Part shown: positions 13,634 through 60,989 of the stretch, one piece after another
Position numbering within the stretch: the first letter of the stretch is position 1
How the letters are laid out: each line of letters begins with the position of its first letter
Source of the DNA: Candidatus Collierbacteria bacterium RIFOXYD2_FULL_45_13
GTDB taxonomy: Bacteria; Patescibacteriota; Microgenomatia; UBA1400; MFAQ01
Direction of reading: 5' to 3'
NCBI GenBank assembly: GCA_001774685.1
Contig: MFAS01000001.1
Coordinates: 961,252 to 1,025,251, forward strand
Length of the DNA: 64,000 nucleotides
Position numbers and translations under genes: made by a program
The notes under the pieces: model-generated
Told to the model about the DNA's origin: nothing
The model's input: the letters and a program-made list of their open reading frames with translations, nothing else
Database searches by the model: none

Positions 13634-13645
13634 CAAAACTCATAC

Positions 13646-37150: not shown

Positions 37151-37616
37151 CGGTCAAATATTAATTTCACGGTACCCTCGAGGCTAAAATCTTTAATTGC
37201 ATAATAATCGAGATAATTAGCCTCATTATCCGCGTGAAATAATTATATTCCGCAAGCAGATACGGTATATAATGATACACAAATCTCAAATATAGAATCT
37301 TCAACATAAAACCTTCATTCCCCGCAAGCTATCCATCATTTCACCGCATCTTTACGCAGACACTTGACTTAATCACATTTTCTTTTTATATTAGTATATA
37401 TACGTATAATGTTGTCTAATATGAACCTAATTTCGAGTTATCAACAATTTCAAAAACAATGTTAATTAATGATTTCTCGAGCCAAAATTATCTTCAGGAG
37501 AAATCCACGGATCACATCTCGCCCATCGAACTTATTTCTGCCGGTATGATCTTCATCCTTCCGATTGTTTTTTTACTAATTATCTCTGCCTCCTGACTTA
37601 AGCTAAGTCAACGCTA

Positions 37617-40600
37617 ATGGTCCTGCCCAACCAAGTCGAACTGCTAAAACATTTCTCTTCTTTCCTATTCGAAGCCGGGCTTTCTTCTGTATCGATCAAA
37701 AATTATCTCTCCGATGTTCGTCATTTTCTAAGCTTTTCACAATCACTTCCGGGTGTTTCGATGGAGCAAATCTTTAGCAAGATCACTGAATTCCTCCCAC
37801 CATACCTGGAAGCTCAACAATCTACCTATACCCCAAAGTCCACTACCAACCGTCGTCTAGCCTCTATCCGGCGTTTCGCCACCTTTCTAAGCGTGAAATA
37901 TGACATTAGCGATTTTTTCACGCAACAAAATATATCAAACAAGAGCAATCAAATTTTGTCCTGGCCCCATATCAACGGATCCAGGGAACCAACTCAAACC
38001 AGATCAGCTCCTATTCCGACACCTGATGAAGACAATAATCATCTCCATGTTTCTTCGAAGACCATGTCCTCCGATAAAATCCTGGAGCAGTTCAAGACCT
38101 CACTGGAAAAAGAAAAAAAGACCCACTCCACCATCAAAAACTATCTCTCGGATCTCAATCACTTCTTCCTGTGGACTGCTAACCAAACACCCTTCACCAC
38201 ACAAAATCTCTTGAATATTTTGAGTGAATCTCAATTACAGGCCTACATCACTTACCTCAAACTAAGTCATACCAGCACATCGGTCCTCAGCCGTCGGCAA
38301 TCCTCAATCAAGAAGTTAGCTCGATTTTGTTTGAGTGAAGGCTACATACCCAAGAACCCCTTTGAAATCAAGCAAGCACCTCAGAAAATTGCCCCCCTAG
38401 CTTGGATTGAAAGACTATCTCACAAGGCCAAGAAGCCTTCTAAGGGCCCTAAAAACATTTTTGTCCTCTGGTATGACAGATACAATGCACTTTCTTGGAC
38501 CCCATATCTAAACGTTGCCCACCTCGTATTGGCCACCACAGCCATGGCTATTTTTGCCTACAACCAGATTATTGGTCAGACTAGACCTAGCGCCGCCGCC
38601 ACCGCCCTGACCCCACCCAGAAGACAGCTGTCTTTTCAGGGTAGACTGACAGACTCCTCCGGCACTCCCATCACCACTTCTGTCAACGTTGTCTTTAAGC
38701 TCTTCAACCAGCTGGCTCCTCCTGGAACCCAGCTGTACACTTCCGGCACCTGTTCCATCACCCCGGACCAAAGCGGTATCTTTAATTCCTTAATTGGCGA
38801 CGGGGTCTGTGGCTCCGAAATCGGCTCATCTGTTTTCACAGACAATCGGGACGTTTTCTTGGAGATTACCATTGGAGCGGAAACCCTTACCCCCAGACAA
38901 CAAATTGCCACCGTTGGTTATGCCCTCAACTCCGAAACCCTCCAGGGGTATCCGGCATCCGCCTCGGCAACCATCAACACTGTCCCCGTTGTTGACAACA
39001 GTGGCAATATCACCATCGCCGCCTCGTCACCCTCCATAGTTTCCACTTCCGGTACTTTTACAGTGAAGGGCCAAAGCCTCGCCCTGACCACCGCCGCTAA
39101 CTCCGGCGGTGACATTGTTCTTCAGCCGGACTCCATAGGCTCCGGTCAAATATTGGCCATCGGTGGCACCACTACCGAAGATTCTCTTAGGGTAACTAAT
39201 GCAAACTTGACAGGCGGCACACTTATCTCCGGTTACGTTGGTAACAATACGGCCACCGGCAGAATCCTTTCGCTTACTTCGGGGTCCACTGAAACAGATC
39301 GGTTCTGGGTGGCTACCGACGGACGCACCGGCATCTTTGCCTCCGACGCCGACACTGCGCTGATTGTGAACCAAACCAGTACCGGTAATCTTATCTCTGC
39401 CTCGGTTTCCGGCTCACCGGTCTTCACGGTAACCAACGGAGGCAACGTCGATATCACCGGTCAGTATTTGATAAACGGCACACCTATTGGCAGCGGTAGC
39501 AACTGGCAGCTTACCTCCGGCTCTCTCACCCCTCTTCAAATAACCAATTCCATCAACATCGGAGCCATCGCCACCGCCTCCGCTCTGGTCCACCTCGCCG
39601 GAACTTCCGGAGAAAATTCATGGATCAACACCGGCAACTTTGGTATCGGGACTACCAATCCGTCGGAAAAACTGAACGTGTCCGGCAATGTCAAACTAAC
39701 CGGTAACCTTCTGGCTACAACCGATAACACCCAAGATCTAGGTGACTCTACCAACAGCTGGTCCAGACTCTATTTATATACCGGCATCAACGACAAAGAT
39801 GGTACAGAGGTCATCTCTACACTCAACAAACGCCTTACCGGAGGATCGGCTTGGAATATCGTTGAAGGTGCCAGACTTGGCGACATCAACGCTATCACCG
39901 CAGGCTATAAATTAGATGTCGTCGGCAATGCCACCGCTTCGGGAAATATCAGTCTAGGTGGACAGCTCCAAGTTGGTCGTTTTGCAGTAGCCCCGACCTC
40001 CCTCGGTTCCGGTTCCATGTACTTCAATACCACCACCACTACCGGTAACTCTAATCCAAATACAGAAACCCCTGGAACCACCGGCAGTCTTTTTGTTTAT
40101 GGTGTAGATAATGCCTATCACCGACTGGCTATGGACATGACTCAATACTCCAGTAACAGTGCCAATATCGCCAATCAAAGCTATATTGAAGTGGCTCACA
40201 ACCAAAACACCAACGACATTTCTCTAACTGCCTGGGTCTACAACAGCGCCACCACCCTCTGGCAAAAAATCAATGATTATTTAGCGAAGTCAGTTACTCA
40301 TGATCTAGATAACGAGTTTAATCCTCCTTTCACTCAAAAAATGAAGACTTCAACTGTCGCCATTGATTACAATGAAAATGATCTGGGCAATGGAGCCGAC
40401 GGAGCGGCTAGTATTTCTACCGATCGCAACCTCAATACCACGAATATCAATAACAACTGTACGACCGATGGGGGCGACGCCGTCAACTACTCTGTTACAG
40501 CCCTCACTAGTACCACTGCCACTCTCGAATCTACTCCAGGTGCAGGATGTCTTGAGGCAGGTGACGAAATTCTCCTCATCAACCTGCAGGGAGGCACCGC

Positions 40601-43600
40601 CGCCTACTCCAATGTAGGTAACTATGAAACTCTGCGGGTTAGTAGTGTCTCTACCAACGTCGTCACTTTCACGGCTGCCAAAACCAAATTCTACGGCGCA
40701 GGTGCGAGCGACGACACGAGCATTGGTTTGTCCGCCGGCAATCAAATCGTCATGCTCCAGAGAGTCCCCAACTATACTGATGTGACTATTTCTACTGCCG
40801 GTACGGACCTCATCGTTGACGACTGGGTTGTCCCTGGCGGCGTCGCTAATAACGGTGCTGGGGAAGGTGGCGTCATGTTCTTTAGAGCCAGCGGCACCGT
40901 TACTGTCAACTCCGGTACTACCATTAACACCAACGGCAAGGGTTACATCTTAGGAACTGCCCAAACCAGTAGTACTGTCGCCGCTGACGGAGGTGAGGCT
41001 TTTTGTAATACTGATGGCGGTGGAGACGCAGGTATCGATAATGGTGCCGGCTCAACCGGTAACTGTGGAGGAGGTGGAGGTGGTGGGGCCGCCAGTGGAG
41101 GAGCCGGTAGTGGCTCAGCTTCACTTGGTGGTGGAGGTGGAGCGGGTGGTGAATCTACCGGCACTACCGCCAACGCCGGAGGAGGTGGTGGTGGTGGGTA
41201 CGGATCTGCGGGTAATGGAGGCTCTTCCACCAGTGCTGCCGGGTCCAACGGTGGCACCAACTCCAGCGGCAACGGTGGAGCAGCCGGAGCCAATCACGGT
41301 GGAGGTGGAGGTGGTGGTGGCACCTATGGAGACACAACCCTGGCCGACCTTTACTTTGGTTCTTCAGGTGGTGGTGGTGGCATGAACGAAACCGACGGTG
41401 ATGCTGGAGGGAACGGGGGTGATGGAGGTGGTATCGTCTATATCGCCGCCAACACGATCACTGTTTCTAGTACTGGAGTCATTCAAGCTAATGGCACTGC
41501 TGGCTCCGCCGGCACAGGTGATGGAGGTGGGGGTGGAGGTGGCGCGGGTGGATCAGTCAAACTAGTGGGTAATACCCTCACGCTAGGCACCTCGCTCGTG
41601 ACGGCCAGTGGCGGCGCGGCTGGTGGATCTGGTAGCGGAGTTGGAGGTGGAGCTGGGGGCGATGGGCGGATTGCCAGTTACTATGCTACATCAATTACTG
41701 GTACCACTTCCCCTACCAAAAACGACTACACCCTTTCGTATAACACATATGCTGTCTATGTGTCTGAAGAAATCAATACTCCCAGCGCCACGAGTTTTGG
41801 TAACTTAAGTTGGACCGAAACACTCCCAGCCTCAACTAATATCCAGTTCCAAACTCGTTCCGGCAACACTCCCGACTCTACCGATGGGACCTGGGAAACC
41901 TGGAAGCCTTCAACTGTCACTACCAACTATGTTGACCTCCAAACCATGAATACCCATACGGACTGGACCGGTACTAATGCCACCGTGGCCGATGGCGATA
42001 TCACTCGCAACGTCGACTATTACGAAGACGAAGACGAATTTACTGCGGACAACCTCACCAAGATCACCTCCACTGCCGCAGGTGGATACGCCGAAGACAC
42101 CATTTCTTCCACTGATATTTCTACGCACGAATACATTAGCGCTTGGGTCTACTCGGTAGGAGGAGGTAATGTTCTCACTCTTGGTTTTGGTGAAGCTGCT
42201 GCTACCGAACAAACTGAAACCGTTACGGTTGACGCTGGTAGTACCTGGCAAAAAGTCTACTGGGATATCTCGGATGTCACTGGCACTGCCAGAAATGCCG
42301 TGACAAAACTAAGAATCACACTCACCACCAACAGTAATACGGTTTACGTCGACAACATCAAAGCCGAAAAAACGCTTCTGACCACACCAGCCGGTTCTGC
42401 CATTACTTCTACCGCCAATAACTATATTCAATACCGAGCAATTTTAACGACCACCAATACTGCCAATCAACCCTACTTCTCAGGAGTTCAGTTAGCCTAT
42501 ACCAACCCAGTTAGTACCTACACGATTGACGCCAATCGCATCCGCCAACTCAACAATGTCGATTACTACACTTCAGGCAGACTCCAAGTCACCGAAAGTG
42601 AGCTAGACAACTACAAAAGTATCCACACCGAAACGGCGCTCACCAGCATCACCCAAAACGCCGCCCTTGACCCGGGAACCGGTGCCGACGGAGCTATCAC
42701 TGTCACCACAGACACTTCTATCAACACTACTTCCTTAATTAGCGGTCGCTCGTGTGCCGATGGCGGAGACGCGGTTAATTACAACGTCACGTCCCTCACT
42801 AGTACTACCGCCGTTCTCGAATCAACTCCCTCAACCGGCTGTCTCGCCGTTGGTGACGAAGTCTTACTGATCAACCTCCAAGGAGGCTCGTCTGCCACCA
42901 GCAACGTTGGTAACTACGAAACCCTTAGGGTTAGTAGTGTCGTCGGAGCTACCGTCACCTTCACAACCGCCAAAACCAAATTTTATGGCGCCAATGAGGG
43001 CGATGATACAAGCATTGGTATTTCGGCAGGATCGCAAATTGTCATGCTCCAGCGCGTCCCCAACTATACCAACGTCACTATCTCGGGTTCCGGCATCGAT
43101 TTTTACCCCGACGACTGGGCTACACCCGATGGAGGAGTAACCAGTGGACCTGGTGAAGGTGGTGTCATGTTCTTTAGAGCCTCAGGTACTGTCACGGTTG
43201 GTAGTAATGCGACGATTCACGCCAACGGCAAAGGTTACATCTTGGGGAGTGGTCAAACCAGTAGCACTGCTACCTCTGACGGAGGTGAAGCATTCTGCAA
43301 TGCCGACGGGGGTGGAGACGGAGGTATTGACGATGCCGCTGGTTCTACAGGAAACTGTGGAGGTGGAGGTGGAGGTGGAGCCGCCAGTGGAGGAGCGGGC
43401 AGTGGCTCAGCCTCACTTGGTGGTGGTGGTGGAGGTGGAGGTGAAGCTACAGTCACGACGGCCAACGGTGGAGGTGGTGGTGGTGGAGGGTACGGAACTG
43501 CTGGTAACGGTGGTAATTCAAGTACTGCCGGTGGAGATGGCTCCAACGGTGGCACCAACTCCAGTGGTAACGGTGGAGCGGCCGGAACTCAGCATGGAGG

Positions 43601-46600
43601 TGGTGGTGGTGGTGGAGGCACTTACGGAGAAACAGCCCTCGATGACCTTTACTTCGGTTCTTCTGGTGGTGGTGGTGGCATGAATGAAATTGATCTAGAG
43701 GCTGGCGACGGAGGAGGTGATGGTGCGGGCATTGTTTTCATCGCCGCCAACACGATTAGTGTATCCGGCAATATTCAATCCAATGGTAGTGCAGGGACTG
43801 AAACTGGGGGTGCCAACGGCGGTGGAGGTGGAGGTGGTGCGGGAGGGTCCATCAAGTTGATCGGCAATGCTCTTAGTCTCGGCTCTTCTCTAGTCACTGC
43901 CACGGGTGGTAGTGGCAGTACTAACTCTGGCGGAGTAGCTGGAGGCAATGGAGGAACCGGCAGAATCGCAACATATTATGTTTCCTCTACTGCTGGGACT
44001 ACCGACCCTGGAGCCAACCTCGCAAGCGTGAGTGCTAATAACTATGCCATTTTTATCTCCGACGAGATTCCTACTCCAAATGCCACCAACTTGGACAAAC
44101 TCAGTTTCAGTTTTGACCAAAACCTTTACGGTCAGGTCCAGTTCCAAACCAGATCCGGCAAAAGTAACAACGCCACCGACGGCTCATGGGAAATATGGAA
44201 GCCAGTCGTAGTCAACACCAACATCAAGACTCTCAATGCCATGGACGCCACCGGAGATTGGTCGGTTACTAGTTTGAGTGCCGCCGCCGACGGTGTTCTA
44301 GCCCGGAATGTGGATGAGTTTGAGGACGAAGATATCACCAACGCGGCCAACAAAAGCGTCAAATTCGGTTCAGTTGGCTCCGCCAATGGGTATGCGGAAG
44401 ACACTATTTCGTCGACCGATCTTTCCAACTATGATCTGATTTCAGCTTGGATCTATGCGACTAGCTCCGGTAACATCGTCAAACTAGGTTTTGGAGAATC
44501 AGCTGGCAATGAACAAGAAGAAACCTTTACGGTTGACACTGCCAACACCTGGCAAAAAGTTTATTGGGACATCACCGATATTGATGAATCACTCCGCAAT
44601 GCAGTGACGAAACTTCGTGTCTCCATTCTCTCCACCAATACAACTGTATATGTCGACAGCCTCCAGGCAGAAAGACTAATGAATACGGCTTCGGGGTACG
44701 TCATTACCTCTACTCCCAACGAGTACCTCCAGTATCGGGCCATCTTGACCACCACCAATAGTGCTTTCCGACCCAAACTGTACAATATCAAAATTGATTG
44801 GAGTAATGGTTATAAAATTGAACAAACAACGGCGAACTCTGTCCGACTCTATAATTTTTCCGGGCAAACACAACAAATCCGACTAGACGCCATAGTCTTC
44901 GGAGCTGACTTGGCCGAATGGTATAGTGTCAACGATTCCAGCATAGAAGCCGGCGAACTAGTTGCCATCACTGGCGCCTTAGATGATTTTGGGGTTCCCT
45001 ATCTTAGAAAAACTAATCAAAAAAATGACCGCAACATCCTCGGTGTTATCTCCACCAAAGCCGGACAAACGCTTGGTGTCGAAGGAGAAAACCGCCGTCT
45101 TCTGGCACTAGCTGGCCGGGTTCCGGTCAAAATAGACCTCAGCAGTCCCAGTATAAAGGCGGGCGATTATCTTACCGCTTCCGACAAACCGGGTCTGGCC
45201 AAAAAAGCTCGTCCGGGAGAGATGACCATCGGCCGCGCTTTTGAGTCTTGGAACCGAGAGGCTCCTACCTCTACTGTTCTAACTATTGTTCAACAACCCT
45301 CAGAAACTCCGGAAGTTGATCTTTCTCAATCCGTTATTTCCATTGCCAAAGATACTTGGGAAGTCTGGAACCAGACAGCTAACATTGCCATCACTCGTCT
45401 GGCCTCTTTCTCCGAAGTAGTCACCGGTCGATTAACCGCCGGACTTACCACCACCAATCAATTACAAGTTGAGACCATCACCTCACTTGCCTCAGGCAGT
45501 GCCATTACCATAAATAGTCCTGTGATTATTCGATCCGGAATACTAGCAACCACCCTCTCCGCACAAACCATCAATTCCGATACACTAAATGTCAAAAACA
45601 TTACCACTGATTCAATTACCGCCAACACCATTATCGGATTGGATGCCAAGGTAGCCAGTCTCTCGGCCGGATGGAGTACCAAACTTTCCGAATCGGAAAT
45701 AGAAACTCTCACCGGTCAAATCGTGCTCCAATTAGCAAACTCCAGCCAACAGTTTTCCGAATTCACCCAAGCGACCGTCGCCAACTTCCAAGCCGGTGTT
45801 TCCGTAATCGGAGAACTCGTCACTGAAAACCTCACCGTTCGTACCAGGCTGATCACCCCCATCGCTGATATCGACCAACTAAAAGTGATTGATGCCACTA
45901 TCTCCGGCACTCTTTATGCCGACAACATTAAGGGAAAAACCGTCGACACTCTTAACCTTCAGCTCGACCTATTAAACGAAAAGTATTCAACCGCCTCAGC
46001 TATCTTAGCCGACCTCCAATCCAGATATTCCTCCTACGACTCTCTCCTCGGGAATCTTCAAACGGCCACCGACTCGGCAGATCCACTGGCTCTCTCTCCC
46101 CTAGCTACCGTTTCTGCCTCCTTCCCCTCCGATATGGCTTTAGAATCCCTGACTTCCCGCCTGATCTTTACCAATGACGTTCTGGCCAGCGGTTCTGTCC
46201 TAGCACAATCCTTTAGCTCGATCGATTCCGATCTTTATATCCAACCCACCGGCGATAAGCCCATCCACCTTCTCGCCAATCTTATGACCTTGTACCCCGA
46301 CGGCAAAGTAGCTATCAATGGAGATCTTCTTATCTCCGGCACTATCTTCGCCAATAGTTTAGACACACGAACGGCCACCGTCTCGGGATCGTTGGCTGTC
46401 GGACAAGGTAACTTTGGCCAGTTAACTACCGGCGGCTTGATCATCGCCTCCGACAATCCAGATCAGTCCTCGAGCATTTCCGCTCAAGTCAGTTCCAATA
46501 CCACCATTGGCACCGCCACCATCGCCACTGGATCTTCAGAAATTGTTATCGCCAACAACAAAGTTACCGATGACACCCTCATCTACATCACCCCGGTCTC

Positions 46601-46733
46601 CGATACTAGCAATCAAGTCCTCTTTGTCAAATCCAAACAATCCGGTGTTGGTTTCACTGTGGCGGTGCCAGGTAACTCTGATCAGATAAAACAAGAAATC
46701 TCTTTCAACTACTGGCTAGTCAAAACAAAGTAA
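37617..46733 (+). CDS. giant (3038 aa) membrane protein: two cytoplasmic integrase-type SAM-like core-binding domains, one TM helix, Gly-rich repetitive ectodomain
   Basis: Residues 1-110 and 150-260 each carry an F..FL...GLS..(S/T)IKNYLSD(V/L)(R/N)HF motif like XerC/D N-termini. TM helix LNVAHLVLATTAMAIFAYNQII. GGGGGG tracts and two diverged tandem units of about 2.2 kb. Confidence 0.8.
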   Translation: MVLPNQVELLKHFSSFLFEAGLSSVSIKNYLSDVRHFLSFSQSLPGVSMEQIFSKITEFLPPYLEAQQSTYTPKSTTNRRLASIRRFATFLSVKYDISDFFTQQNISNKSNQILSWPHINGSREPTQTRSAPIPTPDEDNNHLHVSSKTMSSDKILEQFKTSLEKEKKTHSTIKNYLSDLNHFFLWTANQTPFTTQNLLNILSESQLQAYITYLKLSHTSTSVLSRRQSSIKKLARFCLSEGYIPKNPFEIKQAPQKIAPLAWIERLSHKAKKPSKGPKNIFVLWYDRYNALSWTPYLNVAHLVLATTAMAIFAYNQIIGQTRPSAAATALTPPRRQLSFQGRLTDSSGTPITTSVNVVFKLFNQLAPPGTQLYTSGTCSITPDQSGIFNSLIGDGVCGSEIGSSVFTDNRDVFLEITIGAETLTPRQQIATVGYALNSETLQGYPASASATINTVPVVDNSGNITIAASSPSIVSTSGTFTVKGQSLALTTAANSGGDIVLQPDSIGSGQILAIGGTTTEDSLRVTNANLTGGTLISGYVGNNTATGRILSLTSGSTETDRFWVATDGRTGIFASDADTALIVNQTSTGNLISASVSGSPVFTVTNGGNVDITGQYLINGTPIGSGSNWQLTSGSLTPLQITNSINIGAIATASALVHLAGTSGENSWINTGNFGIGTTNPSEKLNVSGNVKLTGNLLATTDNTQDLGDSTNSWSRLYLYTGINDKDGTEVISTLNKRLTGGSAWNIVEGARLGDINAITAGYKLDVVGNATASGNISLGGQLQVGRFAVAPTSLGSGSMYFNTTTTTGNSNPNTETPGTTGSLFVYGVDNAYHRLAMDMTQYSSNSANIANQSYIEVAHNQNTNDISLTAWVYNSATTLWQKINDYLAKSVTHDLDNEFNPPFTQKMKTSTVAIDYNENDLGNGADGAASISTDRNLNTTNINNNCTTDGGDAVNYSVTALTSTTATLESTPGAGCLEAGDEILLINLQGGTAAYSNVGNYETLRVSSVSTNVVTFTAAKTKFYGAGASDDTSIGLSAGNQIVMLQRVPNYTDVTISTAGTDLIVDDWVVPGGVANNGAGEGGVMFFRASGTVTVNSGTTINTNGKGYILGTAQTSSTVAADGGEAFCNTDGGGDAGIDNGAGSTGNCGGGGGGGAASGGAGSGSASLGGGGGAGGESTGTTANAGGGGGGGYGSAGNGGSSTSAAGSNGGTNSSGNGGAAGANHGGGGGGGGTYGDTTLADLYFGSSGGGGGMNETDGDAGGNGGDGGGIVYIAANTITVSSTGVIQANGTAGSAGTGDGGGGGGGAGGSVKLVGNTLTLGTSLVTASGGAAGGSGSGVGGGAGGDGRIASYYATSITGTTSPTKNDYTLSYNTYAVYVSEEINTPSATSFGNLSWTETLPASTNIQFQTRSGNTPDSTDGTWETWKPSTVTTNYVDLQTMNTHTDWTGTNATVADGDITRNVDYYEDEDEFTADNLTKITSTAAGGYAEDTISSTDISTHEYISAWVYSVGGGNVLTLGFGEAAATEQTETVTVDAGSTWQKVYWDISDVTGTARNAVTKLRITLTTNSNTVYVDNIKAEKTLLTTPAGSAITSTANNYIQYRAILTTTNTANQPYFSGVQLAYTNPVSTYTIDANRIRQLNNVDYYTSGRLQVTESELDNYKSIHTETALTSITQNAALDPGTGADGAITVTTDTSINTTSLISGRSCADGGDAVNYNVTSLTSTTAVLESTPSTGCLAVGDEVLLINLQGGSSATSNVGNYETLRVSSVVGATVTFTTAKTKFYGANEGDDTSIGISAGSQIVMLQRVPNYTNVTISGSGIDFYPDDWATPDGGVTSGPGEGGVMFFRASGTVTVGSNATIHANGKGYILGSGQTSSTATSDGGEAFCNADGGGDGGIDDAAGSTGNCGGGGGGGAASGGAGSGSASLGGGGGGGGEATVTTANGGGGGGGGYGTAGNGGNSSTAGGDGSNGGTNSSGNGGAAGTQHGGGGGGGGTYGETALDDLYFGSSGGGGGMNEIDLEAGDGGGDGAGIVFIAANTISVSGNIQSNGSAGTETGGANGGGGGGGAGGSIKLIGNALSLGSSLVTATGGSGSTNSGGVAGGNGGTGRIATYYVSSTAGTTDPGANLASVSANNYAIFISDEIPTPNATNLDKLSFSFDQNLYGQVQFQTRSGKSNNATDGSWEIWKPVVVNTNIKTLNAMDATGDWSVTSLSAAADGVLARNVDEFEDEDITNAANKSVKFGSVGSANGYAEDTISSTDLSNYDLISAWIYATSSGNIVKLGFGESAGNEQEETFTVDTANTWQKVYWDITDIDESLRNAVTKLRVSILSTNTTVYVDSLQAERLMNTASGYVITSTPNEYLQYRAILTTTNSAFRPKLYNIKIDWSNGYKIEQTTANSVRLYNFSGQTQQIRLDAIVFGADLAEWYSVNDSSIEAGELVAITGALDDFGVPYLRKTNQKNDRNILGVISTKAGQTLGVEGENRRLLALAGRVPVKIDLSSPSIKAGDYLTASDKPGLAKKARPGEMTIGRAFESWNREAPTSTVLTIVQQPSETPEVDLSQSVISIAKDTWEVWNQTANIAITRLASFSEVVTGRLTAGLTTTNQLQVETITSLASGSAITINSPVIIRSGILATTLSAQTINSDTLNVKNITTDSITANTIIGLDAKVASLSAGWSTKLSESEIETLTGQIVLQLANSSQQFSEFTQATVANFQAGVSVIGELVTENLTVRTRLITPIADIDQLKVIDATISGTLYADNIKGKTVDTLNLQLDLLNEKYSTASAILADLQSRYSSYDSLLGNLQTATDSADPLALSPLATVSASFPSDMALESLTSRLIFTNDVLASGSVLAQSFSSIDSDLYIQPTGDKPIHLLANLMTLYPDGKVAINGDLLISGTIFANSLDTRTATVSGSLAVGQGNFGQLTTGGLIIASDNPDQSSSISAQVSSNTTIGTATIATGSSEIVIANNKVTDDTLIYITPVSDTSNQVLFVKSKQSGVGFTVAVPGNSDQIKQEISFNYWLVKTK
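40370..42560 (+). repeat. internal tandem unit 1 of the giant ORF (about 2.2 kb, diverged; approximate bounds)
   Basis: DGGDAVNYSVTALTSTTATLESTPGAGCLEAGDEILLINLQGG...VMLQRVPNYTDVTIS...GGGGGG blocks...AILTTTNTANQPYF is recapitulated at 42660..44830. Confidence 0.5.
42660..44830 (+). repeat. internal tandem unit 2 of the giant ORF (approximate bounds)
   Basis: DGGDAVNYNVTSLTSTTAVLESTPSTGCLAVGDEVLLINLQGG...VMLQRVPNYTNVTIS...GGGGGG blocks...AILTTTNSAFRPKL. Confidence 0.5.
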
Positions 46734-46748: not shown

Positions 46749-47417
46749 ATGAATAACATGAAACATCCAACCTGCCCGCCCAAACTGCGTAGCTGTTGGC
46801 GGGGTTTCACCTTAGCCGAACTCCTGATTGTCATTACCATCATTGCCGTTCTAGCAGTTCTTATACTGCTGTCTCTCAACCCCTTCACCTATTTCAAAAG
46901 AGCTTATGACACTGAGCGGAAAGACGATGTCTACCAACTCAAAAATATTCTTGAAAGTTATTACGCCGATCATGAATACTATCCCGATCTCAAAGTCGTT
47001 CTTGCTGATTGCAACGGGGATAGTTTACAACCCTACCTTGACAAAGTTCCCTGTGACCCAAACACCGGTGCCGCTTACGCCTCCTATACTTTGCCGGTGG
47101 GCAGTACCAAACCCCAGCAATATGTCATTTACGCCCCCACCACCTCTGAGAACTTCCCCGACGCCAACACTGTAGATCAGTGTCCAGATACTTTAATCAC
47201 CAGCTCCCCAGGCATCAGCCAAACAGCCATCATTATCGGGTGTGGGGGTAAAGGGCTCTGTACTCAATACTATGGCTGTAAAAATGGCGCCTGTACCCAA
47301 GTCTCGTTTGATTCTACCGTCAGTTGCACTCCCAATTCTTGTGACTCGGACTGTGGAGGGGTGGACTGCGCGGCTCAAAACGGACAAGGAGGTTATATCA
47401 ACGAGTGTTTGCCTTAG
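46749..47417 (+). CDS. type IV pilin / pseudopilin with Cys-rich C-terminal domain
   Basis: Class III signal: leader ...SCWRG then FTLAELLIVITIIAVLAVLILL, with Glu at +5. At least eight Cys in the C-terminal 70 aa. Confidence 0.8.
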   Translation: MNNMKHPTCPPKLRSCWRGFTLAELLIVITIIAVLAVLILLSLNPFTYFKRAYDTERKDDVYQLKNILESYYADHEYYPDLKVVLADCNGDSLQPYLDKVPCDPNTGAAYASYTLPVGSTKPQQYVIYAPTTSENFPDANTVDQCPDTLITSSPGISQTAIIIGCGGKGLCTQYYGCKNGACTQVSFDSTVSCTPNSCDSDCGGVDCAAQNGQGGYINECLP

Positions 47418-50705: not shown

Positions 50706-50797
50706 CCCTCTAGTTTACCCTATTGACATTTTGGGCAAAATATGTCATCCTATAGCGTATTCAATATCCATCAAGCACCTGAAAATCGGAGGTTACT

Positions 50798-51184
50798 ATG
50801 TTTCGCTCTCGCTATCCCCTGTTCAATTTTGTTATGAACTTCCTGATCTCCTGCGGCCTTTTCTGGTTGTTTTCCCAGATTGGCTGGATTACCATCAGCA
50901 GCGCCCAGCCTCTTTGGGTCATTGTCTTGGTGGTCATCTTGGTGAACCTGGTCGTCAGTCTGGTCCTGACCTTTGGTCTGATCCTGCTTCTGCCAGTCAT
51001 CGCCATCCTGGCCTTCTGCACTCTTGGTCTCGGCGTGGTAGTTATTTCCGGCGCCTTTACCTATGCAGTCTTCTACATCACTGGAAGTCTGACTGGCTTG
51101 TTTGTCATGACGACAATATGGTGGCAGGCTCTCGTCATCGGCATCGCCTTCTCCCTGCTGCGTTTCAGCACCCCTTCGAACTGA
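50798..51184 (+). CDS. small four-TM membrane protein (128 aa), hypothetical
   Basis: Four hydrophobic helices; followed by a strong terminator. Confidence 0.5.
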   Translation: MFRSRYPLFNFVMNFLISCGLFWLFSQIGWITISSAQPLWVIVLVVILVNLVVSLVLTFGLILLLPVIAILAFCTLGLGVVVISGAFTYAVFYITGSLTGLFVMTTIWWQALVIGIAFSLLRFSTPSN

Positions 51185-51199
51185 TCTACCTGCTCGATG

Positions 51200-51227
51200 G
51201 ACCCCGCCTCAGGCGGGGTCTTTTTTT
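51200..51227 (+). terminator. Rho-independent terminator gaccccgcc-tcag-gcggggtc plus T7
   Basis: Perfect hairpin plus T-run. Confidence 0.6.
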
Positions 51228-51331
51228 ATCCCAAACAGTGATGTTGAAGCCAAAACTTGACATTTCACGCACTATAAGATATAATACTCACCAATTCTAC
51301 CTTGACTTTCCGACAACTCAAAGGAGACCTC

Positions 51332-51823
51332 ATGAAAACTCCACACCTGCTGCGCATTCTGCTCGCCCTCACAATCCTCTCTCTCGCCCTCACCGCCTGC
51401 GGCACACAAAAAGTCCAGTACCCGAGTTTGTGGGAAATCTACGACCCCGCTTCATTCACGACGGGAAGCCTGCGAACGGGCTACAATGTCGTCGTCGAGC
51501 CCATTGCTGAATCAGAACTTCCGGGATATGGACAAAAGGTCGAGGGCGTGGCCATCTATATGGTCGCCGAAGTGACCAGTGCCATTGACACTAATTTCTC
51601 AGCCTTGTATGTGGCTGAGGTGTACCCATCCATCACGGTACCGAACGGATACTTGTTGTCAGGACGAAAGGTTTTCTTCCGAGTCCGTCAACAGGCCAAT
51701 GAACTGGCTACTGCCGATCAAGTCTGGAACCCCATTGGTACAGACGCCGCCGCAGTCATGTCGACGCTTTGCGCCGACACCGCCCAAAAGACGGGCGCGG
51801 CCTCTTTCTGCCCCACTCCTTGA
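51332..51823 (+). CDS. lipoprotein (163 aa), hypothetical
   Basis: MKTPHLLRILLALTILSLALTAC lipobox after an AAGGAGA Shine-Dalgarno. Trimmed from track ORF 51302. Confidence 0.6.
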   Translation: MKTPHLLRILLALTILSLALTACGTQKVQYPSLWEIYDPASFTTGSLRTGYNVVVEPIAESELPGYGQKVEGVAIYMVAEVTSAIDTNFSALYVAEVYPSITVPNGYLLSGRKVFFRVRQQANELATADQVWNPIGTDAAAVMSTLCADTAQKTGAASFCPTP

Positions 51824-51833
51824 TCTCCAACTC

Positions 51834-51867
51834 AAAAAAACCCTCCGCCTCTCGCGGAGGGTTTTTC
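51834..51867. terminator. Rho-independent terminator aaaaaaa-ccctccgc-ctct-cgcggaggg-ttttt
   Basis: Symmetric A and T runs around a GC hairpin. Confidence 0.6.
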
Positions 51868-51953
51868 ATGCCAAATTCGTCATTGCGAGTTTCGGTAATC
51901 CGAACCGTGGCTCGCTGATACCCGAAGGGGTAAATCTCACATATAATGATCTC

Positions 51954-53357
51954 GTGAAGCGTTTTATATTTCTATCTTTATCACTCTTCTTTGCCGTTTT
52001 TATTATCCTCCTCATTCCCCAAGCCACAACCATTAAGCCATTCCTGCCCTTCGCCAACTATCTCCTAGGCGTGGCAAATCCCACGTCATACTTGGTTTTA
52101 CTGGGCAACGACACCGAAATGCGTGCCAATGGTGGCTTCGCCGGCTCCTACGCCAAGCTCTCCCTCTCCACCAAACTAACTAACAACTTCGCACTAATAA
52201 CTAATAACTCCCTGGATTTCCAGGACATCTACGTCCCCAATGGCCAGCTGGCCGGCCACGTCACCCCACCGGAACCAATCCAACAAGCCTTCGGGCACGG
52301 TACCTGGGAGCTCGCCAATGCCGATTGGGAGCCGGACTTCCCTACAGCAGCACAGAACATTCGTTGGTTTTTGGACAAAGGTAAAGAAATAAACCCCGAC
52401 ATTCTGGCCATCATCAATCTCACCACCATCAAACAAGTCTTGAATATTGTCGGTAGTTTCCCTGTGCCTGAATACGCAGCAAATATTACTCCTGAAAATC
52501 TGTATCTTTTTCTCCAAGGCAAAACCGAAACCAATTTTTTCCCCGGCTCTACCCAAAAAAAAGACACCCTCACCGCTGTCGGCCAAGCCCTAATTAAGAA
52601 GTCAAAAAGCCTTTCTCTCTCGAAAAAGCTTACGATAGCGCACATATTGTATACGGATTTAATAAATCAAAATATCATGATCCATTCGTCTAATACCTCG
52701 TTTCAAGCATTCCTCGAACAAAAAAAGCTCGCTGGAGTTTTGTCTCCCGAGGCTTTTGACACCTACTCCCTTATAGAGACCAACTTAGGAGCCAATAAAG
52801 CCAATCAGTTCGTTTCCCGCTCCACTACCCACACCATCACCCACTCTTCATCCTCAACCATCCGCCACCAAGTCACCGCCCACTTCACCAACTCCTCCCC
52901 GGCAGCCAATCCCAACCCTCCCGTTCATTACGGAGGCAACTACATCGCCTATCTCCGCTTCTACATACCCACATACGCCCAAAACATTTCTTTAACTCGG
53001 ACACCAGAAGGCAAGCCTCCCCTCCCCGAGGAGTTGGACACTACTACTTCAACTGTCAATGCGAAGAGCGCAAGCGACGCAGCAATCTATACAAATGGCA
53101 CCACCGGTCCAAAATGTGAAATGAGCAATGTAAAATGTAAAATCTCCTACGGTCTTACCGAGATGGGTTTCTGGCATACCACCCCTGCCGGAGGCGAAAG
53201 CACTATTTCTCTTGCCTACGACCTCCTCCTACCACAGTCCATAGAGTACTCCCTGGCTATCCTCAAACAACACGGCTTGGCTACCTCCCCCCAAACCGTC
53301 GATCTCTTCGGCAATCACTACTCCTCCGGGCTCAGGCACAGCTTCCGTTTACCATAG
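51954..53357 (+). CDS. membrane-anchored extracytoplasmic protein (about 467 aa, GTG start), hypothetical
   Basis: The track ORF 51579 overlaps the lipoprotein gene in another frame. The first plausible start after its terminator is GTG at 51954 (VKRFIFLSLSLFFAVFIILLI anchor); TATAAT lies 9 nt upstream. Confidence 0.5.
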   Translation: MKRFIFLSLSLFFAVFIILLIPQATTIKPFLPFANYLLGVANPTSYLVLLGNDTEMRANGGFAGSYAKLSLSTKLTNNFALITNNSLDFQDIYVPNGQLAGHVTPPEPIQQAFGHGTWELANADWEPDFPTAAQNIRWFLDKGKEINPDILAIINLTTIKQVLNIVGSFPVPEYAANITPENLYLFLQGKTETNFFPGSTQKKDTLTAVGQALIKKSKSLSLSKKLTIAHILYTDLINQNIMIHSSNTSFQAFLEQKKLAGVLSPEAFDTYSLIETNLGANKANQFVSRSTTHTITHSSSSTIRHQVTAHFTNSSPAANPNPPVHYGGNYIAYLRFYIPTYAQNISLTRTPEGKPPLPEELDTTTSTVNAKSASDAAIYTNGTTGPKCEMSNVKCKISYGLTEMGFWHTTPAGGESTISLAYDLLLPQSIEYSLAILKQHGLATSPQTVDLFGNHYSSGLRHSFRLP

Positions 53358-53451
53358 CTTCATAGTCATACCTATAACATTGCGTTTTCCATTTTAACAA
53401 GGTAAAATATGCAAGATTCAAACCAAATCTGTACGTTAATAGGAGTAAAGC

Positions 53452-53934
53452 ATGAAGCAATCGTATCTGAACGTCGGCTTGACAGTCTTTGGCTTCACCG
53501 TTCTGACCTTGGTCATCAGCGTCCTTCTGGGTACCTCCCCCGTTACCATCCTGGCTTTTGCCGGCAACTTGGTGGTTTATTTCATTTTCTTCTTTGGCTT
53601 TCAGATTGTCCTGCCTCCACTTATTGCCTACTTTGCCCGGAAGTACGGGATCACCCGGCTCGACAACAAGTTTGGCCAAAACTACCGTGAACAGATTCCC
53701 AACTGGATTCACTGGCTTCTTGCCATTACCTTCGGTTTGCTTATTGGACTCGCCTGGATGAAACTCACCCCTCTCATCGCCTTCATCCCCTCCTTGAGTG
53801 TCTGGCCTATTGAGTTTTTGCGCTGGACGGCGAGCTTTGAGCGGATCAATTATTGGGTGTCTGTCTGGCCCGCGATATCTTTCGCGGTCTCCTACCTAGT
53901 CACCCATACGGATATATCCAACCGAGAAAACTGA
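53452..53934 (+). CDS. four-TM membrane protein (160 aa), hypothetical
   Basis: TAATAGGAG Shine-Dalgarno; hydrophobic helices; terminator follows. Confidence 0.55.
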   Translation: MKQSYLNVGLTVFGFTVLTLVISVLLGTSPVTILAFAGNLVVYFIFFFGFQIVLPPLIAYFARKYGITRLDNKFGQNYREQIPNWIHWLLAITFGLLIGLAWMKLTPLIAFIPSLSVWPIEFLRWTASFERINYWVSVWPAISFAVSYLVTHTDISNREN

Positions 53935-53941
53935 TTTTCCA

Positions 53942-53968
53942 AGCCCCGTAGATAACGGGGCTTTTTTG
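53942..53968 (+). terminator. Rho-independent terminator agccccgt-agataa-cggggct plus TTTTTT
   Basis: Hairpin plus T-run after the stop at 53934. Confidence 0.6.
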
Positions 53969-53991
53969 CGCCTCTTCAAGCTCATTTTGCA

Positions 53992-54020
53992 TAAAAAAAG
54001 ACCCCCATTATAGGGGGCCT
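53992..54020 (-). terminator. Rho-independent terminator for the minus-strand operon (ggcccccTATAATgggggtc plus T-run on minus strand)
   Basis: Lies 7 nt downstream of the minus-strand ORF ending at 54027; A-run on the plus strand. Confidence 0.55.
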
Positions 54021-54026
54021 TCGAAG

Positions 54027-54398
54027 TTAATCCAGTTGATCGTAAGGTGAGCGGCGCTCAATGAGTCCATCTGAACCCCATCCAGGCGTAGCCGCCAGTT
54101 TGTCCAATACTCTTGTGGACATGTCTTCCAAAAACGCAGCGGCATCCGACAGATCACGCTCACCGTCGCGCAAAGTCTCTGCGTTTATGACCAAAGCCAC
54201 TTTGACAGAGGCTGACAGAAGTTCAACCTCTCCATCGCCAAACGCCTCTTGTACCGCTTTTTCAAAGATCGGCTGATCGATGGACAGGTTACGCACCTGT
54301 AAGACAACCTCATCTCCGACCATCTCCCCCACGAGCGGTGTCATCGAAACCAGTTCCACCACATACATGTCACCTTGGTTGAATCTCGCCACCATCAT
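54027..54398 (-). CDS. acidic cytoplasmic protein (123 aa), hypothetical
   Basis: ATGA-coupled to the upstream lipoprotein gene; no TM helix. Confidence 0.5.
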   Translation of the reverse strand: MMVARFNQGDMYVVELVSMTPLVGEMVGDEVVLQVRNLSIDQPIFEKAVQEAFGDGEVELLSASVKVALVINAETLRDGERDLSDAAAFLEDMSTRVLDKLAATPGWGSDGLIERRSPYDQLD

Positions 54399-55114
54399 TC
54401 CTCCACATTCGGGTTCGTTTTTAGGATAACGTTGTTCTGTCCAGGCGTAATCCCATCGAAGTAGTCATCGGGCAATGGGTCAAATCCTAGTCCGTTCAGA
54501 GCCAATCGAATCCACTCCTCGTAGACATAGTTGTACGATCCGTCGACGATAAACTGGAACTTGTCCATTTTCTCGTTAAGAACGTATCTCAGAGATCCAG
54601 TTTCGGTCCCGACTCCGCAAATCAGATTGCCGTAGCTATCTTTATCACAGTTGGCAATCCCGATCTCCAGGCTGACCATCGACTCAGACGGGATCGTCTC
54701 ACAAATGGGCTGGACGACCACTTTGGTCGTTATCTCGTTAAGGTTAATCGTATTTACTCCGCAGTCGCCATAAGTGTTGGCTAGAGGTCGACTTAGATAG
54801 ATTCGGAAGAGCGGCCCCAAGTCCACAATCTGCGGCTTCAGATCGACAGGCTGCCAGACACCATCCTTTTTCGTAAAGGTGATGGTCTCTTGCTCCACGT
54901 CACTGCCCTGGAAAAATGCCCTCGGAATGTCTTCTGTATAGGAGTAGGTGAAGAAAATCCTTCCCTCCGTTTGCGGTGCCACGGTGGGCACCACAGGAGC
55001 CTCAATCACTGAGAAGATGGGGTACTCTGTAGCCGGCACTTCTGCGGGCACGTTGGCCGGGGCACAAGCCGCCAAAATCAAGATCAAAATTAGGAAAGCT
55101 GTTAACTTTTTCAT
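54395..55114 (-). CDS. lipoprotein (239 aa), hypothetical
   Basis: MKKLTAFLILILILAACAPA lipobox; Pro/Val-rich linker. Confidence 0.55.
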   Translation of the reverse strand: MKKLTAFLILILILAACAPANVPAEVPATEYPIFSVIEAPVVPTVAPQTEGRIFFTYSYTEDIPRAFFQGSDVEQETITFTKKDGVWQPVDLKPQIVDLGPLFRIYLSRPLANTYGDCGVNTINLNEITTKVVVQPICETIPSESMVSLEIGIANCDKDSYGNLICGVGTETGSLRYVLNEKMDKFQFIVDGSYNYVYEEWIRLALNGLGFDPLPDDYFDGITPGQNNVILKTNPNVEE

Positions 55115-55182
55115 GTACGCCTCCAGATATCAAGATGTGCCTATTATAACACATATAGGATAATCTACGCACCTTTTCGCCA

Positions 55183-55209
55183 ATAAAATCCCCCGCCGGT
55201 TGGCGGGGG
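55183..55209 (-). terminator. terminator element aataaaatcccccgccGGTTggcggggg (copy 1 of a repeated element)
   Basis: 8-bp GC stem with a T-run on the minus strand, downstream of 55225..55449. Near-identical to 57763..57789. Confidence 0.55.
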
Positions 55210-55224
55210 TGGTATTAGCGAAAA

Positions 55225-55449
55225 CTACGCTTCTTCGACGGCGTCGATGTCGTCAGCGTGCAGACGGTAGTTTGTACCTTCTTCATTGCTGAAGACGAAT
55301 CCATCTTCGTTCGCCTCGACAAAGGTCAGCACCGTCTCCGCGTTCAGATCGATGTCGTTCTGAAGGACACAGTTCTGTCCATCGACGACACACGCGTCGA
55401 CTTCCCTCGTTAGGCGATATTTCACGTCTTTCTCAAATTTCGGTTCCAT
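55225..55449 (-). CDS. small acidic protein (74 aa), hypothetical
   Basis: ORF with its own terminator. Downstream of, and co-oriented with, the lipoprotein gene. Confidence 0.45.
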   Translation of the reverse strand: MEPKFEKDVKYRLTREVDACVVDGQNCVLQNDIDLNAETVLTFVEANEDGFVFSNEEGTNYRLHADDIDAVEEA

Positions 55450-55468
55450 CGTTTCTCCTTCTCACCCC

Positions 55469-56485
55469 TTACGGAGTGGCGGTCGGGACCAACTCGGTCG
55501 GGACGGAGGTGGGACTAGGAATAATGACCGCAGGCGGACCGTCATCGATGATTCCGCCCTGACAGACGTTACCAGAGAAGTTGAAGACGCACGTACTACC
55601 GGCGTTCGCGCATGCCTGAACCAGGTCCTGCAAGCCGAGCCAGCAGTAGGCATTCGGTCCGTAGAGCTCCTGGGCCACCTGCAAACGCTGTTGGCTGAGA
55701 GAGATCGAACCTTGGGTGCTCGAGTTCGACTGATCCGGATTTTTGATCACGTAATCGATCACGATCTCGATCGGAGCACAGTAAAACTCTCCTTCGCCCG
55801 GTTTCTTAGGATCGGGCCAACCAGAGGCATTGGCACCACAGAAGAAGTCGATATTGTTGTACCCCGTGGGGGCTCGAAGCTTTTCCTTGATGCTTTCTAC
55901 CATATACTGCTGGAGAATCGCGATTTGCGCCGTATCCCCGTTCTGCCAAATTGCGTCGGTCGTCAGGAACGCCCCTTCCCTTGCGGAACGGGCCATTGCC
56001 GGGCCAAAGGTCTCACCCAGCATGTCAAGCCACCCTTCGGTGGAGTTGTTAATCTCACCACCAGAGACATCACGATCACTGGCGGCACCAAACTTGTATT
56101 GGTATTTGAAGAAGGCCTTCATCGCCTCCTTATTCTGATTGAGCTGAAAATAGGAACTCACGGCGATGAGAATGTCAGTCCCTGTGGAAGTTTTCGCTTT
56201 CAACAGCTGGATTTCATCACCCACCGATATACCATTACTCACCTGACTACCGTCATTAATCAGATAATTCCGATCACCGCAGGGTACGTACTTAATGACG
56301 TGGTCTGTACTGGCTTGAGGGATCTCCTCCCCCGGATAGTAAACCTCATCCACGTCCGAATCGGGATAACCATCGCCGACTACGTAGGCACAGCTTGCCT
56401 CGCTTACTCCAGAATAAAAACAGCCGGTGAGCAGGAAACTGGCAATGACCAGCAACGACAACACAGTGAACAGTTTCTTCTTCAT
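55469..56485 (-). CDS. lipoprotein (338 aa), hypothetical
   Basis: MKKKLFTVLSLLVIASFLLTGC after a CAAGGAGAACC Shine-Dalgarno. Trimmed from track ORF 56545. Confidence 0.55.
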   Translation of the reverse strand: MKKKLFTVLSLLVIASFLLTGCFYSGVSEASCAYVVGDGYPDSDVDEVYYPGEEIPQASTDHVIKYVPCGDRNYLINDGSQVSNGISVGDEIQLLKAKTSTGTDILIAVSSYFQLNQNKEAMKAFFKYQYKFGAASDRDVSGGEINNSTEGWLDMLGETFGPAMARSAREGAFLTTDAIWQNGDTAQIAILQQYMVESIKEKLRAPTGYNNIDFFCGANASGWPDPKKPGEGEFYCAPIEIVIDYVIKNPDQSNSSTQGSISLSQQRLQVAQELYGPNAYCWLGLQDLVQACANAGSTCVFNFSGNVCQGGIIDDGPPAVIIPSPTSVPTELVPTATP

Positions 56486-56547
56486 CCTTGGTTCTCCTTG
56501 TGAAATGTTTTCAAAGTCCCGAACGGTATGTATTATACCGCACAAGC

Positions 56548-57789: not shown

Positions 57790-57813
57790 AAATACGGAAA
57801 TTCTGTTTGAAAC

Positions 57814-60987: not shown

Positions 60988-60989
60988 CT

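Follow-up and report, generated by a model that had tools for sequence, protein, structure and literature searches.

The giant gene described here lies in a 64,000-nt stretch of DNA (the window) from an ultrasmall bacterium, Candidatus Collierbacteria bacterium RIFOXYD2_FULL_45_13 (contig MFAS01000001.1, positions 961,252 to 1,025,251). Its predicted product combines two core-binding (CB, SAM-like) domains of the tyrosine-recombinase type, a single transmembrane (TM) helix and an extracellular fibre. Sequence comparison places it in a large family of Patescibacteria, mainly Microgenomates, and identifies this family as a giant mosaic surface fibre with an unprecedented cytoplasmic module, so far undescribed. 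The explanation that we favour overall, and to which we give slightly better than an even chance, is that of a membrane fibre adhesin whose CB head binds repeats in its own operon. Patescibacteria, the candidate phyla radiation (CPR), account for much of bacterial diversity and spend their lives attached to other microbial cells, while the molecules responsible for attachment and its regulation are mostly unknown. The coordinates of the features are collected in Table 1.

Domain layout of the giant protein and its family

Profile searches with Pfam matched Phage_int_SAM_1 (PF02899) twice in the giant protein, with an E-value of 5.6e-13 for the whole protein and separate values of 4.3e-8 for amino acids (aa) 1-110 and 3.6e-8 for aa 146-268; the SAM_4 and SAM_5 models (PF13495 and PF13102) matched it too. 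No Pfam family outside the CB group was found in the 3038 residues, and the N-terminal 300 aa matched CB-type families only. The Phage_integrase catalytic domain gave no match at E ≤ 1 across the 3038 aa and is considered absent because the NCBIfam XerD, XerC and XerA models, of 263-300 positions, were covered at positions ~1-110 only, that is, over their first ~100 positions. An AlphaFold2 model of aa 1-340, for which 27 family sequences were used, contained helical bundles at aa 6-95 and 152-240, both with a confidence score (pLDDT) above 90, separated by a disordered linker of ~45 residues (aa 102-147) and followed by two more helices, one short and amphipathic (aa 281-291) and one long (aa 295-321). 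The top fold matches of the head in the PDB were the CB domains of VchIntIA, XerA, Tn1549 Int, lambda Int and Cre, with ~100 residues aligned at 2.8-4 Å and probabilities of 0.9-1.0. According to the model, the cytoplasmic part is made of two recombinase-type CB bundles of four or five helices on flexible linkers.

The 19-residue window of highest hydrophobicity in the entire protein begins at aa 297. The N-terminal 296 aa are basic (isoelectric point (pI) 9.7, net charge +14) and include, ahead of the TM helix, a basic juxtamembrane stretch and a conserved Y-x-x-Y-N-x-L motif, and the 2718 aa that follow the helix are acidic (pI 4.3, net charge -117), with 14% Gly, 13% Thr and 11% Ser. This charge distribution, basic before the helix and acidic after it, indicates an N-in/C-out topology, so that the giant protein is, as predicted from sequence and model, a type-II membrane protein with ~296 cytoplasmic aa, one TM helix and an extracellular fibre of ~2700 aa, the ectodomain counting 2717 aa. 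An earlier note, made from the letters of this DNA alone, had proposed tandem CB domains with no integrase catalytic domain, a single hydrophobic helix near residue 300 and a huge Gly-rich ectodomain with Gly tracts; the analysis, which included the profile searches and the N-terminal structure prediction that it suggested, agrees with it on all these points.

Immediately after the TM helix, aa 329-397 showed a weak match to Bdello_MAT_N (NF053851; E 3.3e-6, 27 bits against a cutoff of 60). In MAT fibres, a conserved beta domain of ~130 aa follows the signal peptide and adjoins the cell surface (PMC10769870). The TM helix and this base domain form the best-conserved region of the protein, with 70-92% identity among orthologues compared to 47-69% in the CB head. 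Farther out, the Gly tracts sit in two tandem modules of 763 aa (aa ~927-1689 and 1690-2452) that share 63% protein identity over 727 aligned positions and 73% DNA identity. Because the DNA identity is merely 73%, we regard the two modules as diverged copies and not as a collapsed repeat. Comparable Gly-rich cassettes were restricted, among the complete orthologues, to the window protein and those of loci L009 and L018, and the Gly-rich units had no sequence match in Pfam, PHROGs or the PDB. Nothing significant was found when ten overlapping ectodomain segments were compared to Pfam; a PHROGs search with nine segments returned 'integrase' for the head only and no tail-fibre family; and the whole giant protein had no match among PDB sequences (phmmer).

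At the distal end, a monomer model of the C-terminal part resembled phage depolymerases and tailspikes in a fold search. The S74 domain is absent from the giant protein itself according to Pfam; relatives of its C-terminal part carry Peptidase_S74 (PF13884) and are labelled tail fiber domain proteins. Among orthologues, both protein ends are conserved and the middle is a mosaic of species-specific cassettes. The MAT-like base, the S74-bearing relatives, the tailspike-like C-terminal model and the mosaic middle are the reasons for reading the protein as a tail-fibre-like adhesin. By analogy, it seems fairly safe to regard the ectodomain as a probably trimeric adhesin, similar to phage tail fibres and MAT fibres, that projects from the cell membrane, and equally fairly safe to picture its bearer as a wall-bearing episymbiont lacking an outer membrane, whose exchangeable cassettes would bind host or substrate surfaces.

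The GC skew, calculated in 2-kb bins, is strongly negative (-0.2 to -0.35) throughout the window independently of gene orientation, and reaches ~0 solely at 40-44 kb, the site of the GGN-rich cassettes. It is reminiscent of the disparity in strand composition that has been reported from a Microgenomates genome (PMC7143001).

A search with aa 1-340 recovered close relatives that were mostly broken off at contig ends, and also a protein of 492 aa (P0013) with the CB-CB-TM arrangement, a short ectodomain and a C-terminal motif shared with the giant protein. Scanning one genome per species, we located 78 family loci, the nearest in Candidatus Collierbacteria and others in Woese-, Beckwith-, Roizman-, Levy-, Gottesman- and Shapirobacteria and in unnamed Patescibacteria. 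Complete orthologues, which come from ~10 independent assemblies, measure 1797, 2419, 2376, 2435, 3083, 2086, 2086, 2373, 3281, 2524 and 2420 aa, and every one of them starts with CB-CB-TM and ends with ...GFTV...ISFNYWLV(E/Q)TK. An exhaustive HMMER search with aa 1-470 in 1.84 billion cluster representatives yielded at least 349 proteins at E ≤ 1e-30, with sizes up to 6346 aa. Within the top 148 representatives, 62 contain two CB domains, 52 one, 26 half a domain, 2 one and a half, and 6, which are fragments, none; at least part of a CB domain thus precedes the TM helix in 142 of the 148, and from these counts we conclude that CB head, TM helix and base domain form a fixed combination. Searching for homologues with the base domain only gave 8 short fragments.

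The possibility of an artefact, either a chimeric assembly or a degenerate integrase gene wrongly fused with an adjacent fibre gene, appears highly improbable. Giant repetitive genes frequently break or mis-join assemblies, and many database relatives do end at contig edges; nevertheless, the continuous architecture recurs in the ~10 complete orthologues and in those 142 representatives, the internal repeats are too different in DNA (73% identity) to favour it, and the junction, TM helix plus base domain, is the part of the protein that is best conserved. The misassembly or separate-genes alternative that the earlier note had left standing is thereby refuted, and the same fusion, which it had proposed to look for in related genomes, turned out to be widespread, with the pilin neighbour conserved in many loci. 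Its description of the architecture as unusual remains correct with respect to described systems but not in the sense of rarity, since the arrangement is the hallmark of a Patescibacteria family of at least 349 clusters.

Some members carry an intein (PF14890, Hint-type sequence) within the fibre gene (L052, ORF 9962-13669; P0028; P0039). Many family-bearing contigs that are plainly Patescibacteria by gene content are titled 'uncultured Pseudomonadales/Gammaproteobacteria' (L001, L004, L005, L007, L010, L012 and others), and the misleading titles also include one Bathyarchaeia and one Spirochaetia. The database labels on family members ('site-specific integrase', 'XerD') are misleading as well.

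The upstream spacer and the split genes

The giant gene is preceded by an AT-rich spacer of 715 nt. The -35 box of a sigma-70-type promoter and the stretch surrounding its -10 box are invariant across an alignment of 15 loci with protein identities of only 39-70%. Immediately past this promoter start GT(A/C)TAAT direct repeats, followed by TGAACCTAAA, in a single copy in the window. Across loci, the element consists of 2-3 GT(A/C)TAAT repeats with a period of 10-11 nt plus yTGAA(C/G)CTAAA; the unit is GTCTAAT in the Collierbacteria group. Promoter and repeat element were seen together in L001-L030, L034, L036, L037, L048, L058, L061, L070, L072 and L076. In 19 loci, a single exact copy of the 18-mer CGTCTAATATCGTCTAAT is present, always ~190-290 nt ahead of the family gene; for the element, likewise found once per locus, the distance is always 180-300 nt. 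A looser pattern gave 41 matches in 1.0 Mb, 36 of them within 400 nt upstream on the gene strand, compared to 0-3 matches in shuffled controls. Woesebacteria and Levybacteria-like loci are among the matches and have GTATAAT as their unit. The helically phased element is found co-inherited with the gene family through deep lineages.

When metagenomes were scanned with the exact 18-mer, the small ORF (open reading frame) lay at +55 nt in 39 of the 57 evaluable loci, with the CB gene following at +275-360 nt. Because the remaining 18 matches were unrelated sequences or tandem 10-mers, we consider that the element belongs to this operon alone; no wider regulon was visible in this metagenome-wide scan. 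We also considered whether the GTMTAAT repeats could act as sigma-dependent pause sites. The sigma-70 -10 element needs an essential A at -11, and this role is weakened because the Collierbacteria repeat, TCTAAT, has a C at that position. An RNA family in the spacer or leader was discarded, since neither at gathering score nor at E ≤ 1 did Rfam report anything but one snoRNA match, attributed to chance.

Between the repeats and the giant gene, the small ORF encodes a 45-aa peptide whose amino acid sequence is maintained in ~25 of 28 close loci and also in some that are distant. Its alignment shows invariant columns every third base, and it belongs to no Pfam or NCBIfam family.

The spacer contains other sequence features. 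Two of them are kept in the closest relatives only, namely the direct repeat ATT(T/A)ACGCATAA, present at 37077 and at 37108, and the perfect palindrome CATATGATATA-ggta-TATATCATATG at 37125-37150. The idea that these sequences (37077-37150) form a dif site found no sign of a terminus, cumulative GC skew being monotonic across the window, and their conservation being limited to close relatives speaks against it. A second conserved block, ...TTGATATATTAAcGT...TTCTGCGGTAATT.TATTAAAT..., often followed by a GC hairpin, lies ~260 nt upstream of the CB gene in L035, L039, L040, L042, L044, L046, L049, L051-L057, L059, L060, L062, L065, L068, L069, L073, L075 and L078. Within it, TGCGGTAATT is faintly ops-like, and in these loci the ATG follows AAATACCTCTTGACA-17-TATGAT at a distance of ~8 nt, which makes the arrangement nearly leaderless.

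In some lineages, Beckwith- and Woesebacteria among them, the protein is encoded by two consecutive genes, one of 150-240 aa and one of 1500-3000 aa, and the break falls within CB domain 2. The small protein ends past helices A-B (...STIKNYLSDIxxYLLWA*) and the giant one opens with helices C-D (...ATIKRKISSLNRF...), then continues with the TM helix and the base domain. Loci with this split include L050, L057, L061, L065 and L073; the gap between the two genes is 5 nt in L061 and 236-406 nt in the others, and in L057, L065 and L073 it holds an extra conserved ORF of ~60 aa (motif L..L.DP...G.PY). The form is widespread, given that 26 of the 148 top representatives start at model positions ~51-99. 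An intron was rejected, since Rfam detected nothing in seven split loci, one gap measures only 5 nt and three gaps carry a small conserved ORF; for the same reasons we regard the split as genuine. The simplest reading of these sequences is that the two halves would come together in trans, so that a soluble CB unit would be linked to the cytoplasmic tail of the fibre.

Possible roles of the cytoplasmic head

In the explanation that we favour, the CB bundles would keep the ancestral ability to bind duplex DNA and would recognise the 2-3 GTMTAAT direct repeats, one helical turn apart, just downstream of the promoter of their own operon; in this way, the operon formed by small peptide, fibre and pilin would come under transcriptional feedback from the membrane-tethered head. 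In split lineages, helices C-D at the N-terminus of the fibre would provide the docking site for the soluble piece (CB1 plus helices A-B of CB2), and the fibre base could thus retain or release the DNA-binding unit. For the specific proposal that the head binds the phased repeats and exerts feedback on the operon, sequence and context suggest about one chance in three. DNA binding is favoured because the generic CB signature is invariant (S-h-K-N-Y-L-S-D-h-x-x-F and R-R-L-S/A-S-h-R/K-x-F, canonical motifs present in both domains), the head is basic, the repeats are specific for this gene and need a factor, and the Collierbacteria repeat argues against a simple pause-site role.

Several points weigh against this explanation. 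DNA binding by the head is a prediction from sequence and context, and recombinase CB domains, when isolated from the catalytic domain, show weak affinity for DNA. Conservation is lower in the head than in TM helix and base (47-69% versus 70-92%), and the conserved split within CB domain 2 would point toward docking. The repeat element was not detected in a large set of split or single-CB lineages, which have a different conserved upstream block, so that the pairing of CB head and repeats may not be universal. The repeats could also be bound by another regulator or act in an RNA leader. As for the fibre, trimer formation, surface exposure and adhesion are argued by analogy, Pfam, PHROGs and PDB sequences returned blanks for the ectodomain, and the NCBIfam scores for the Pam and MAT models are below cutoff.

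A head that no longer binds DNA is the most direct rival, and we hold it as a tentative possibility: the CB-like bundles would mediate protein-protein contacts in the cytoplasm by which the fibre base is anchored, oligomerised or positioned, and the ComEC channel, the 45-aa peptide and the pilus machinery are among the partners that could, as tentatively, be proposed. The split within CB domain 2 in many lineages (26 of 148 start with helices C-D) speaks for such a platform, as split halves imply non-covalent reassembly with CB domain 2 as the dock, and so do the number of CB domains, which ranges from one half to at least two, the head being less well conserved than TM helix and base, and the co-encoded conserved membrane peptide. 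However, what is most strictly conserved is the generic recombinase CB signature and no new surface, the head is strongly basic, and the operon-specific repeat element would still need a binding factor; docking and DNA binding are, moreover, mutually compatible. We find it doubtful that the protein signals from outside to inside in the manner of ToxR or Notch, host contact or fibre tension altering the oligomeric state or releasing the CB head, by proteolysis or non-covalently, to regulate genes. The topology is that of membrane-bound one-component regulators, the split form supplies a releasable soluble CB unit, the repeats sit at the operon's own promoter, and the tiny CPR cells would let membrane-tethered factors reach the nucleoid; yet no sensor, protease site or regulon has been identified, the exact element occurred in the metagenome scan at its own promoter only, and a fibre of 2700 aa with the role of a sensor would, as far as we know, be unprecedented. 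The earlier note had raised such a surface-signal-to-DNA regulator; the repeat element beside the promoter gives it circumstantial support, whereas the conserved split within CB domain 2 points to docking.

Coupling to DNA uptake, in which the membrane-tethered CB domains would capture or hand over DNA entering via ComEA/ComEC, seems improbable. It would fit the synteny of the genes for ComEA, ComEC and a metallo-beta-lactamase (MBL) throughout Microgenomates, interleaved with Pam genes in some lineages, and the type IV pilin that is predicted from gene order to be co-transcribed. ComEC, however, delivers single-stranded DNA and CB domains bind duplex DNA; the synteny may merely reflect a common cell-surface island, and no DprA, ComF or Ssb genes were seen nearby. 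This possibility and the ToxR/Notch-like one partly overlap with the others. In its boldest form, which from sequence we consider quite doubtful, the family would be a new class of CPR transmembrane signalling device, with a host-binding fibre, a CB head on repeats at its own promoter and a releasable CB subunit docked by complementation, through which contact with the host surface or tension would be passed directly to DNA without two-component systems.

Related systems and genomic surroundings

With tyrosine recombinases (XerC/XerD/XerA, integron and phage integrases), the giant protein has in common the N-terminal CB/SAM-like signature and fold, here in two copies. It is not one of them because the catalytic domain (R-K-H-R-H/W-Y) proved absent, hence no recombination is expected; in addition, the CB domain is duplicated, membrane-tethered and sometimes split. 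The ToxR/CadC/TcpP regulators are alike in their N-in single-pass layout, with a cytoplasmic domain of DNA-binding type and an extracytoplasmic C-terminal part. Theirs, however, is a winged helix (OmpR-type) with a periplasmic sensor of 100-250 aa, compared to a CB bundle and a 2700-aa fibre here, and we exclude the protein from the ToxR family because the fold differs, only CB families and no OmpR-type winged helix being found.

The MAT fibres of Bdellovibrio (PMC10769870) have a conserved beta-rich base after an export signal, to which the base domain described here may correspond, and share mosaic exchangeable modules and a bacterium that lives on bacteria, as well as phage-tail-fibre ancestry and an S74 chaperone in part of the family (here, S74 is found in relatives). 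They differ in having a cleaved signal peptide, no cytoplasmic domain, a size of ~600-1500 aa and a variable C-terminal tip, whereas the proteins studied here have a TM anchor with a CB head, a conserved C-terminal end and a variable middle, and their MAT_N match is below the curated cutoff. Unlike phage tailspikes and depolymerases or R-type pyocin fibres, the giant protein is a chromosomal, core, membrane-anchored cellular protein, and neither a baseplate-attachment N-terminus nor a PHROGs tail-fibre match was found in it.

The nearest counterpart comes from the Pam system, characterised by cryo-electron microscopy of Ca. Mycosynbacter amalyticus filaments (Troman et al. 2026, bioRxiv 10.64898/2026.03.03.709456). 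One sentence of this preprint names a 'tail fibre-like protein' whose gene is consistently found together with the pam operon; compared by description, this is likewise a giant fibre beside Pam-type pilin, chaperone and tip genes. Judging from gene position and description, our giant fibre probably belongs to the same gene family, located at the same position. The preprint does not mention a CB or integrase-like head, Xer, linkage to ComEA/ComEC, a TM anchor, a split, a small peptide or a cis-element. Literature searches on SAM-like/Phage_int_SAM domains in CPR and on tail fibers in Saccharibacteria found no description of the CB-headed fibre architecture, and no description of the CB head, the split, the 45-aa peptide or the repeat element was found in the literature.

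These results define a large conserved family of giant surface fibres and place it inside the Pam-pilus island. They also point to the recruitment of a recombinase DNA-binding domain, without the enzyme, as the cytoplasmic end of a surface structure; the natural split within a CB domain argues for assembly in trans, and the operon-specific cis-element together with the unannotated membrane peptide offer cheap and direct experimental handles. If the head binds the repeats, it would be a new kind of membrane-tethered regulator and a means of making gene expression respond to host contact in organisms with minimal genomes; otherwise, the family would still be a likely host-range determinant, with cassettes that could be mined for host prediction. 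The labels 'site-specific integrase' and 'XerD' on family proteins should be treated as wrong annotations.

Table 1. Coordinates in the window of the giant gene, its domains and the surrounding features
Feature	Position	Strand	Basis or remark
Giant gene (fibre), 3038 aa	37617..46733	+	Single uninterrupted ORF, ATG start
CB (SAM-like) domain 1, aa 6-95, predicted cytoplasmic	37632..37901	+	PF02899 E 4.3e-8; helical bundle pLDDT >90
CB (SAM-like) domain 2, aa 152-240, predicted cytoplasmic; divided between two genes in other lineages	38070..38336	+	PF02899 E 3.6e-8; model
Single TM helix, aa 295-321 (signal anchor)	38499..38579	+	Hydrophobicity, charge, model
Membrane-proximal beta-rich base domain, aa ~329-470	38601..39026	+	Bdello_MAT_N E 3.3e-6; conservation
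Gly-rich cassette A, aa 927-1689	40395..42683	+	Self-comparison; weak AgmC_N match
Gly-rich cassette B, aa 1690-2452	42684..44972	+	63% identical to cassette A
Distal stalk of coiled-coil helices plus beta-sandwich at C-terminus, both conserved (beta-sandwich in last ~80 aa, ...LIYITP..VLFVKS..ISFNYWLVKTK)	45897..46730	+	
Conserved sigma-70-type promoter, TTGACT-17-TATATT	37364..37392	+	Consensus scan, 10/12 matches
Cis-element, GTATAAT-GT-T-GTCTAAT direct repeats with 10-nt period, then ATGAACCTAA	37404..37430	+	~+6 to +32 of inferred transcript
Small ORF, 45 aa, predicted tail-anchored membrane peptide (MLINDFSSQNY...GMIFILPIVFLLIISAS)	37459..37596	+	Ends 20 nt before giant gene
Six-gene Pam-pilus-type operon	30181..36901	+	NCBIfam matches below curated cutoffs; synteny in >40 loci
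PamT-like gene	30934-31815	+	NF058579 E 3.5e-14, below curated cutoff
Gene with Pam pilin C-domain	32822-34258	+	NF058581, below curated cutoff
Chaperone-like proteins with C-terminal TM helix	31819-32814 and 34282-35295	+	Layout as in PamC and PamD
Membrane-protein genes of Pam-type operon	30181-30915 and 35324-36901	+	
ComEA, ComEC and ComEC-type MBL gene	27336..29848	-	Pfam; synteny
Type IV pilin-like gene, Cys-rich C-terminal half	46749..47417	+	N_methyl and GspG matches

Regarding the genomic surroundings, the six genes of the Pam-type operon are co-oriented, carry signal peptides or TM helices and belong to no Pfam family. The Pam pilin domain (NF058581) was matched at the C-termini of the products of 30934-31815 and 32822-34258, with E-values of 1.7e-4 and 1e-3 that are below the curated cutoffs. 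The pilin gene begins 15 nt past the stop codon of the giant gene; its product has an RGFTLAELLIV motif, in keeping with a prepilin leader, its G|FTLxE cleavage/methylation site and the hydrophobic helix, and matches PF07963 (N_methyl; E 6.9e-5), TIGR02532 (E 1e-5) and GspG (E 4e-8). The position of this gene after the fibre is kept in L001, L003, L007, L010, L012, L014, L015, L018, L020, L065 and L073. The earlier note had already seen a pilin gene just downstream and had suggested a pilus- or adhesion-associated giant protein; this suggestion now finds support in the Pam operon upstream, the type IV pilin downstream, the MAT-like base, the tailspike-like C-terminus and the S74 relatives. The C-terminal half of the pilin has 12 Cys in its last ~80 aa and a weak ComP_DUS-like match (E 0.05).

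The succession of ComEA/EC, Pam genes, spacer (~570-970 nt), fibre, pilin, Obg and M23 peptidase is conserved in dozens of loci. The synteny of ComEA-ComEC-MBL with the Pam operon holds throughout Microgenomates, and in L049, L051, L054 and L073 these genes are interleaved within the Pam cluster, a position that they also have in several Roizmanbacteria-like loci.

In the rest of the window, ORFs of 160-592 aa, mostly on the minus strand, occupy 50731-62768, and among them Pfam and NCBIfam recognised no family except DUF4012 in 51579-53357. ARAGORN called two tRNA-Ala genes, at 11102-11173 (-) and 13563-13634 (+), with GGC and CGC anticodons, and Rfam at gathering score reported only the second one (13563-13634). 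A second giant ORF of 2275 aa (17158-23985, minus strand), composed of Kelch beta-propellers and fn3 repeats without a CB head, directly adjoins a MacB/FtsX-type ABC transporter pair (14419-17158, minus strand).

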